Of a DNA stretch of 64,000 nt, positions 55,115 to 55,813 are shown piece by piece (position 1 is the stretch's first letter; every line of letters starts with the position of its first letter). The stretch comes from a phage: the NCBI GenBank assembly GCA_019338205.1, contig GCA_019338205.1_4761.1. The stretch is one strand, 5' to 3'. Position numbers and translations under genes: made by a program. The notes beneath the pieces were generated by a model. It made no database searches, was not told the origin of the DNA, and saw only the letters and a list, made by a program, of their open reading frames with translations.

Positions 55115-55813
55115 ATGCATACAATGGTTAAAATGGTCTTCGGATCTCACTTATACGGCCTTGATACTGAAAATTCCGATAAAGATTATCGTGGTATCTT
55201 TGTTCCGACTGCGAAAGAAATTATCTTAGGATCGATGAAAGAACACTATGATCAAAGCACTAGCGGTCAAGGTATCAAGAACACCAAAGACGATATTGAC
55301 GTTAATATGTTCAGTCTAAAACGGTTTATCAATCTGGCATGTAAAGGCGATATCGGCGCTATTGACATGGTGCACGCGCCTAGTAACATGTTGGTTGAAT
55401 CCTCCAGAGAATGGGAATACATCCGAACACATCGCGATAAATTCTATCATGTTGGGATGTGGGGTTTGTCTGGTTATCTCAAGAAACAGGTAGCTAAATC
55501 TGAAAAGTATTTCAGTAACTGGAAAGATCTTTCTCATGCTCTGCGTGTTGGTTATCAGCTACTTGAAATCTATCAGACAGGTGATCTACAATTCCCGCTC
55601 GCGCGACGTTCTTCTATTTTAGCGTGTAAGTTAGGAGAAAGAACCTTTGATAATGTGCGGGAAGAATTGAAAGATCTCTACGAGCGTGTTAAACTCGCGC
55701 GTGAAGAGGCAAAGAAAAACGGTATGCCGGAAGAACCAGATGTTGACTTTTGGAAAGATTTATTAGAATATATTCATCTGACCGTTGTTCTGGAACACTA
55801 TACCCGTGGTTAG
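55115..55813 (+). CDS. predicted nucleotidyltransferase (Pol-beta-like NTase fold)
   Basis: 232 aa; N-terminal FGSHLYGLDTENSDKDYRGIF (GS...DxD signature); RBS GAGGG. Confidence 0.5.
   Translation: MHTMVKMVFGSHLYGLDTENSDKDYRGIFVPTAKEIILGSMKEHYDQSTSGQGIKNTKDDIDVNMFSLKRFINLACKGDIGAIDMVHAPSNMLVESSREWEYIRTHRDKFYHVGMWGLSGYLKKQVAKSEKYFSNWKDLSHALRVGYQLLEIYQTGDLQFPLARRSSILACKLGERTFDNVREELKDLYERVKLAREEAKKNGMPEEPDVDFWKDLLEYIHLTVVLEHYTRG

Follow-up and report, generated by a model that had tools for sequence, protein, structure and literature searches.

The nrdC.11 gene of the window (the whole stretch of 64,000 nucleotides that was analysed) encodes a protein of 232 residues which, judged from sequence comparison, is the Krischvirus orthologue of T4 NrdC.11 and a member of the RlaP (RNA-ligase-associated Pol-beta, PF10127) family of nucleotidyltransferases. 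Compared with its T4-type relatives, the protein lacks a module of about 105 residues that was lost by secondary deletion, and it is best described as an NrdC.11 reduced back to the canonical two-domain RlaP core. As far as could be found, the loss of this module in Krischvirus is undescribed in the searchable literature, and it constitutes a minor structural variant. Public records already contain the gene and its name, as well as its assignment to the nucleotidyltransferases and to its family. The interpretation of the earlier note, which had predicted from the DNA a stand-alone Pol-beta-like nucleotidyltransferase in the early accessory region, is thus supported as right but not as new.

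The nrdC.11 gene of Krischvirus and its surroundings

The window belongs to a Krischvirus, an RB49/Phi1-like coliphage within the T4-like Straboviridae, and the region studied here showed a DNA identity of 96–97% with 59 Krischvirus genomes. The orthologue in Phi1, phi1p098, is named nrdC.11 and carries the RefSeq product "nucleotidyltransferase". The gene order in Phi1 is vs.8, ORF100, vs.6, nrdC.11, three small ORFs, regB, vs.1, vs, tk.4 ... tk, rI. Proteins that were 99–100% identical to that of the window were found in 53 Krischvirus phage records. Comparison with the Phi1 gene gave a dN/dS of 0.03 (8 synonymous changes and 1 non-synonymous change), and purifying selection on the 232-residue protein is strong. 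A match of nrdC.11 orthologues to a nucleotidyltransferase domain (COG3541) has been in the literature since 2006 (PMC1524935), and the T4 gene has proved to be deletable in the laboratory (PMC9825161), a dispensability that fits an accessory role and gives no functional clue. The name "thioredoxin", under which NrdC.11 is widespread in the databases, is wrong; the name that can be supported is "RlaP-family RNA nucleotidyltransferase".

The features of the region are listed in Table 1. Both the open reading frame and the N-terminus quoted for it in the earlier note, MHTMVKMVFGSHLYGLDTENSDKDYRGIF, were confirmed by the ORF list and by direct reading of the DNA. An intrinsic terminator preceding the gene, also claimed there, was located in the gap between the upstream stop codon (55028) and the nrdC.11 ATG. 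Its stem (55038–55062) is followed by TTTTCGTTTT, and the RNA fold has a predicted energy of −15.6 kcal/mol (z = −3.64), with 1 of 200 shuffled sequences being as stable. The strong ribosome-binding site was identified as GAGGG. The sigma-70-like promoter candidate shares the 3' half of the terminator; promoter-like sites were no more frequent in this region than in shuffled sequences, and this site is to be taken as a consensus match only. An Rfam scan of positions 53400–57300 gave nothing meaningful. The position of nrdC.11 between a GrcA-like gene and a triplet of small paralogues also proved correct. The upstream neighbour (54612–55028) has a Gly_radical domain, and the three small downstream ORFs, which matched no Pfam family, are mutually paralogous (E=1e-13 and 1e-4). 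The regB gene (PF10715, 1.8e-48) lies about 850 bp downstream of nrdC.11, and a gene with a Macro domain is found in the same early cluster.

Table 1. Features of the nrdC.11 region, in coordinates of the window
Feature	Coordinates	Strand	Description and evidence
Intrinsic terminator closing the upstream vs.6 (GrcA-like) gene	55038..55071	+	10-bp stem, 5-nt loop, T-run; consensus scan
Sigma-70-like promoter candidate	55056..55084	+	TTGGCT, 17-nt spacer, TATGAT, upstream TG; 9/12 consensus matches
Shine-Dalgarno GAGGG	55103..55107	+	7 nt 5' of the ATG; direct reading
nrdC.11 CDS	55115..55813	+	ATG start, 232 aa, RlaP-family (PF10127) nucleotidyltransferase
N-terminal minimal NTase domain (aa 1 to about 112)	55115..55450	+	Strands 2-9, 23-30, 44-48, 61-67 and helices; AlphaFold2
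G10-S11, hG[GS] motif	55142..55147	+	99% / 98% conserved in 294 family sequences
D22-K-D24 (DxD), catalytic carboxylate pair	55178..55186	+	99% conserved
D60-I-D62, candidate third catalytic carboxylate (hDh)	55292..55300	+	97-98% conserved; start of beta-strand 61-67
C-terminal helical domain (aa 116-230)	55460..55804	+	Helices 116-131, 136-155, 165-172, 178-201, 210-230; AlphaFold2
Deletion scar SEKYFSN (aa 129-135)	55499..55519	+	Alignments A1, A2; T2 model

Family membership, catalytic residues and fold

Membership of the family is established here by the Pfam search, in which the protein matched PF10127 RlaP ("RNA repair pathway DNA polymerase beta family") with 54.1 bits (E=2.3e-14), the gathering score being 23. 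Residues 7–191 align contiguously with positions 24–198 of the 249 of the profile. No other Pfam family was matched at E≤1, the PolyA_pol-type head (CCA-adding enzyme / poly(A) polymerase class II) included. The protein also matched PHROG 388 'nucleotidyltransferase' (E=2e-79). NCBIfam yielded no match, and PADLOC yielded none to its nucleotidyltransferases (MNT, CD-NTase, AbiEii), with just a noise-level hit to CARF-HEPN (E=0.031, 10.9 bits). A HMMER search against 1.84 billion representative proteins gave 6992 relatives at E≤1e-3, 1543 of them at E≤1e-30. A second protein search, with a profile, recovered almost the same set of T4-type proteins, without any bacterial RlaP; the bacterial homologues, which are 21–28% identical to the protein of the window, were retrieved by tblastn on plasmids.

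The GS...DxD signature that the earlier note had read at the N-terminus was verified, with GS at residues 10–11 and DxD at residues 22–24. G10 and S11 are invariant in alignments A1, A2 and A4, and G10 is so in A5 as well. In comparison with the RlaPs of Deinococcus, Bacillus and actinophages, G10, D22 and D24 are invariant and S11 is not. Of the second pair of acidic residues, either D60 or D62 is the probable metal ligand. All 24 positions with a conservation of at least 95% in the family are retained in the 232-residue protein, and its catalytic motifs are therefore intact. Highly conserved family positions that differ here are four: S129, N135 and D138, which lie at the deletion junction, and R26, a conservative change (K in the family).

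An AlphaFold2 model built from an alignment of 30 sequences (pLDDT 92, pTM 0.88) consists of a Pol-beta-type nucleotidyltransferase domain followed by a helical domain, as the earlier note had proposed. In this model G10-S11 are placed at the end of strand 1, D22 and D24 at the start of strand 2, and D60 and D62 at the start of the strand formed by residues 61–67. The helical domain carries the family-invariant residues K137, H141, R144, K172 and G174, and the model ends in a long C-terminal helix (residues 210–230). Fold comparison gave matches to HalB, KNTase/ANT(4'), LinB, AadA, DrrA, GlnE and MNT-HEPN complexes. In a library of viral models, an identical model was found (TM 0.97), together with dozens of phage and giant-virus "nucleotidyltransferases" (TM 0.6–0.84). 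The earlier note would have given up its assignment had the fold comparison returned no nucleotidyltransferase; since such matches were obtained, the assignment stands.

The missing module

The NrdC.11 proteins of other T4-like phages have about 300–345 residues (about 336 in T4/T2 vs 232 here). The Krischvirus protein aligns with them in two blocks, with about 105 residues missing. Over the shared parts its identity to T4/T2 NrdC.11, its orthologue, is 41–54%, the motifs FGSHLYG...SDxD, KNTKDDID and WKxLSHALR are common to both, and the protein of the window nests in the T4-type clade. At the junction the sequence reads GYLKKQVAK-SEKYFS-NWKDLSHALR, whereas the long forms have GYVRKQASKYGVKGSR...YGERARKAEANEGIDWKALSHALR. 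In a model of the T2 protein (pLDDT 87), the first and second helices of the helical domain are separated by the insert (residues 131–240 approximately), which folds as an alpha/beta module of its own; the conserved edges of this module, YGxKGxR and YGxRAxxAxxNxG, are absent from the protein of the window. The gene neighbourhoods also differ, nrdC.11 being placed between vs.6 and regB in the window and beside nrdC.10 and mobD in T4.

More than a thousand sequence clusters of NrdC.11 proteins of the T4 type have conserved the module, and among the 150 best representatives only the cluster of the window itself is short. Two histories of the short form were considered. In the first, the short state would be ancestral and the module a gain of the T4-type proteins. 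In a neighbour-joining tree rooted on actinophage RlaPs, however, the short clade is nested inside the long forms, a basal position being recovered in a single one of 100 bootstraps. The ancestral short state was therefore rejected, and the short form is the product of a secondary deletion. As to the fate of the lost segment, tblastn found the module as a separate gene neither in the window nor in positions 1–156.9 kb of Phi1 (all E >0.09). When the T4-type insert was scanned by itself against Pfam, the only match was to DUF1409, below the threshold.

Eleven residues with a conservation of at least 86% in the NrdC.11 clade disappeared with the module (G132, K134, G135, R137, Y227, G228, R230, A231, A234, N237 and G239, in T2 numbering). 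Three of them, K134, R137 and R230, all basic, are conserved in at least 91% of the clade, and their loss means that substrate binding may differ from that of the T4 enzyme. The short form is retained in a divergent relative, P0002, a protein of 234 residues with 57% identity and with its own start and stop codons. This relative matches PF10127 with 64 bits over profile positions 23–229, and its gene has the same synteny as here (M15 endolysin, vs.8, Gly_radical, homing HNH, RlaP, small ORFs).

The description of the protein as an NrdC.11 reduced to the RlaP core is based on two observations. The PF10127 profile runs contiguously across the junction in the short form, whereas in T2 it ends at the insert. 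In addition, the RlaPs of Bacillus, Deinococcus and actinophages, which have no insert, show colinearity with the short form, and their linker is about as long. The bacterial RlaPs share with the protein of the window the PF10127 match, a nucleotidyltransferase domain followed by a C-terminal helical domain without the T4-type insert, and the three acidic residues. They differ from it in their low identity, indicated above, and in that the protein of the window is encoded by a phage, in a gene that is not linked to a ligase gene. Because the Krischvirus form represents a minimal NrdC.11 made by nature, its comparison with the T4 enzyme could reveal what the module contributes, for example in tRNA recognition.

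Proposed function and alternative readings

Among the roles that the earlier note had offered for such an enzyme, namely RNA or tRNA repair, nucleotide signalling or counter-defence, the RNA-repair option is the one favoured by the RlaP match and by the Hen1-Pnkp, RNA ligase and tRNA context of the homologues. This context was established here in several genomes. Plasmid P2 of Deinococcus gobiensis has the order Hen1, NTase, NTase, Pnkp, which is that of the classical bacterial RNA repair operon, and the first of these nucleotidyltransferases matches the protein of the window (6e-8) over 88% of its length. In the Gordonia phage Kudefre, the homologue lies downstream of an RNA ligase, at a distance of about 2.9 kb, and directly precedes a tRNA array. 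Phi1 (96% DNA identity) encodes both pseT (polynucleotide kinase) and rnlA (RNA ligase 1), the tRNA repair enzymes of T4, although these genes lie about 75 kb from nrdC.11, whose neighbours are vs.6, the small ORFs and regB. Counted genus by genus, homologues of this NrdC.11 and of the Phi1 Rnl1 occurred in almost equal numbers of phage records: 638/637 for Escherichia, 286/287 for Klebsiella, 83/83 for Shigella, 75/77 for Aeromonas, 69/69 for Acinetobacter, 57/57 for Vibrio and 56/56 for Enterobacter. These counts are consistent with a co-distribution of both proteins, but they may reflect only shared descent within the T4-like phages.

Burroughs and Aravind reportedly coined the name RlaP from the linkage of these proteins to RNA ligases. 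In jumbo phages the distribution of RlaP mirrors that of RNA ligases, and phage RlaPs have been predicted to restore the nucleotides removed by RloC-like nucleases before ligation takes place (Iyer et al., 2021, PMC7824862). A preprint of December 2025 by Carruthers, Fatma and Huang (10.64898/2025.12.29.696909) describes two bacterial members, PfRlaP of P. fluorescens and PaRlaP of P. aeruginosa, both from RtcB operons. These enzymes extend the 3'-OH of RNA by one or two NMPs, for which any NTP or dATP can serve as donor, prefer Mn2+ or Co2+, and are inactive on DNA, protein and 3'-phosphate ends (10.64898/2025.12.29.696909). On a mimic of a cleaved tRNA, they act preferentially at the broken end of the anticodon loop; they raise the aminoacylation of a repaired tRNA missing one nucleotide, and they also labelled RNAs of rRNA, tRNA and fragment size with little NTP specificity (10.64898/2025.12.29.696909). 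The 2.1 Å structure of PfRlaP presents a nucleotidyltransferase and a helical domain, a conserved cleft and a last helix packed on the nucleotidyltransferase domain. The same work placed T4 NrdC.11 in cluster 5 of its PF10127 network, terms this protein 'of unknown function', and treats the role as an antidote of RloC as a hypothesis even for the bacterial RlaPs (10.64898/2025.12.29.696909).

With somewhat more confidence than doubt, we propose that the Krischvirus protein is an early RNA 3'-terminal nucleotidyltransferase which requires metal and no template and which feeds phage tRNA repair together with Pnkp and Rnl1. The behaviour of the two Pseudomonas enzymes in vitro and the genomic associations described above are the basis on which we infer an RNA substrate, the length of the addition and a role in tRNA repair. 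The enzyme would be expressed early and would depend on divalent metal and on no template, using G10/S11 and the carboxylates D22, D24 and D60–62 to move one or two NMPs from NTPs to the 3'-OH of a broken RNA. When a host anticodon nuclease of the RloC type excises a nucleotide from a tRNA, the phage polynucleotide kinase-phosphatase (pseT) would heal the ends first, NrdC.11 would put back the excised nucleotide before ligation, and RNA ligase 1 (rnlA) would then seal the break, regenerating a usable tRNA. Should this role be true, T4-like phages would hold a third tRNA repair enzyme beside Pnkp and Rnl1. It would be an answer to those host anticodon nucleases that remove a nucleotide to defeat repair, and hence another round of the arms race.

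The same chemistry could also serve RNA 3'-tailing instead of repair, in which the addition of one or a few nucleotides would alter the fate of host or phage RNAs, for instance by marking RegB fragments or host mRNAs for decay or by blocking the 3' ends of host tRNAs or toxin RNAs. The labelling of varied RNAs by the bacterial enzymes, with little NTP specificity, would agree with such a role, as would the placement of nrdC.11 in an early cluster with regB and the Macro-domain gene and away from the ligase and kinase genes. Nevertheless, RegB-type metal-independent RNases leave 3'-phosphate ends, and these are not extendable by RlaP. Moreover, the proximity of nrdC.11 and regB is specific to Krischvirus, the T4 gene adjoining mobD and the nrdC.x genes. 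A functional linkage of nrdC.11 to the nearby regB was considered and is a weak rival. Since the family tracks RNA ligases and Pnkp/Hen1 across bacteria and phages, we regard tailing as an unlikely role, albeit one that deserves some weight. More improbable is an acceptor other than a nucleic acid, by which the protein would act as a protein or small-molecule nucleotidylyltransferase, like the MNT antitoxins, DrrA/GlnE or the aminoglycoside and lincosamide enzymes, and might neutralise a host toxin. The fold matches to KNTase/ANT(4'), LinB, AadA, DrrA, GlnE and MNT-HEPN point in this direction, and the C-terminal domain resembles HEPN bundles. KNTase/ANT(4'), LinB and AadA, which modify small molecules, have the same succession of a nucleotidyltransferase domain and a helical (HEPN-like) domain. 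However, these similarities remain at superfamily level (9–14% identity and TM 0.25–0.45 for the matches as a whole, 9–13% identity for KNTase/ANT(4'), LinB and AadA, in the same TM range), and the sequence match is specifically to PF10127. The RlaPs assayed left E. coli proteins unlabelled, and an MNT-type function is further opposed by the lack of PADLOC matches to MNT or defence nucleotidyltransferases and of an adjacent HEPN or effector gene.

HalB of the Hailong system (9dbh, 9dbi, 9dbj) was the top structural match in the PDB set compared, and the protein could be imagined as a HalB-like template-independent synthase of oligonucleotides (e.g. oligo-dA) that makes a signal or a decoy, for example replenishing the oligodeoxyadenylate that inhibits Hailong so that the channel is kept closed. 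We give this very little credit. The same holds for its narrower version, in which the insert-less NrdC.11 would be such a synthase instead of an RNA-repair enzyme, and a short oligonucleotide or a nucleotide-capped RNA or DNA would be the decoy or substitute signal keeping a host guard-type defence, such as the DNA-gated channel of Hailong, off; this too we consider highly improbable. If true, the phage would encode a mimic of a host immune 'all-clear' signal. Nevertheless, HalB is similar in fold only (12–16% identity), with no sequence similarity detectable even with profiles; PDB sequence searches with the protein and two profiles, A2 and A5, gave chance-level matches only and none to the three HalB entries. 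HalB is moreover the closest solved structure by default, the PfRlaP structure being outside the set compared. It is a protein-primed poly-dA synthase that works with the membrane effector HalA and makes additions of DNA, not RNA, whereas RlaPs stop after one or two additions and do not use DNA acceptors. No HalA-type effector was identified among the neighbours of nrdC.11, three of which are the ORFs without a Pfam family, and Krischviruses are not known to meet Hailong.

Finally, the loss of the module, with its eleven conserved residues, three of them basic, could have crippled the enzyme, leaving a decaying or inactive remnant whose ORF persists by inertia. This seems to us the faintest of the readings considered. 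A pseudo-enzyme was rejected because all the catalytic and core-invariant residues are kept and because of the low dN/dS. In addition, the AlphaFold2 model is compact and confident, and the short form is conserved in the divergent relative P0002. Canonical RlaPs, one of them inside a Hen1-Pnkp operon, are equally insert-free.

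Genes flanking the nucleotidyltransferase gene

The gene upstream of the RlaP-family nucleotidyltransferase gene (nrdC.11), vs.6, encodes a protein whose glycyl-radical domain carries the motif RVSGYAVRF. Judging from its sequence, this product is GrcA-like and would be a phage-borne spare-part glycyl radical cofactor. On the other side, the three tandem small ORFs, for the second and third of which alternative starts are given, are paralogues (E=1e-13 and 1e-4) sharing the motifs ITPGKxYxFTP...GYIKDDxGY...C(S/A)(H/Y)L...W, and no family was matched when they were searched against Pfam. 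They occupy the slot of vs.3-vs.5 in T4. RegB and Macro-domain genes were also identified near the nucleotidyltransferase gene and, therefore, RNA-cleaving and ADP-ribose-related functions are grouped within 3 kb of it. In addition, the run of five small ORFs looks, from the hydrophobicity of the translations, like a series of tandem small membrane proteins.

Features around the nucleotidyltransferase gene in the window and in two related phage sequences
Feature	Sequence	Coordinates	Size	Domain or character
Five small ORFs in a run	window	52509-53510	54-88 aa	translations very hydrophobic
Endolysin	window	53539-53928		M15 peptidase
vs.6	window	54612-55028	138 aa	stand-alone; C-terminal glycyl-radical domain PF01228 (1.5e-16)
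Small ORF 1, immediately 3' of the nucleotidyltransferase gene	window	55835-56029	64 aa	
Small ORF 2	window	56011/56026-56271	about 81-86 aa	
Small ORF 3	window	56272/56329-56664	about 111-130 aa	
RegB	window	56669-57091		endoribonuclease, PF10715 (1.8e-48)
Vs.1	window	57177-57767		SLT transglycosylase domain
Tk.4	window	58150-58605		Macro domain
Homing endonuclease gene	L005 (Logan SRR8048117 contig, Krischvirus-like relative)	3951-4547		HNH/NUMOD4
57B	L003 (stretch of Phi1)	2529-2993		

Neighbourhoods in other genomes

In the L005 relative, whose nucleotidyltransferase is 57% identical, the homing endonuclease gene is inserted precisely at the junction between vs.6 and the nucleotidyltransferase gene, a site corresponding to the terminator/promoter spacer of the window.

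RlaP-type nucleotidyltransferases were also found in Mycobacterium phages Nanosmite and Crossroads (L006/L007), Gordonia phage Kudefre (L008), a Bacillus pumilus plasmid (L009) and Bacillus thuringiensis plasmid pAM65-52-3 (L011). Redoxin or nucleotide-metabolism genes are recurrent near them in these unrelated phage-like genomes, the neighbour sets being nrdE-nrdF-thioredoxin, td-frd...tk, an NrdH-like glutaredoxin, and PRPP synthase with NAMPT, and the nrdC...nrdC.11 arrangement of T4 resembles these neighbourhoods. This proximity may hint at a tie to nucleotide supply, or it may be mere clustering of genes in the early region.

Database names

NrdC.11 homologues are named 'thioredoxin' in many GenBank and UniRef entries, and 'HNH homing endonuclease' in one; the sole Pfam domain is PF10127. 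The 'thioredoxin' label seems to be a mis-annotation, apparently inherited from the gene symbol nrdC. Gene 57B of Phi1 is annotated as 'RNA ligase'; however, T4 57B is the 2H-phosphoesterase Acb1, an anti-CBASS nuclease and not a ligase.
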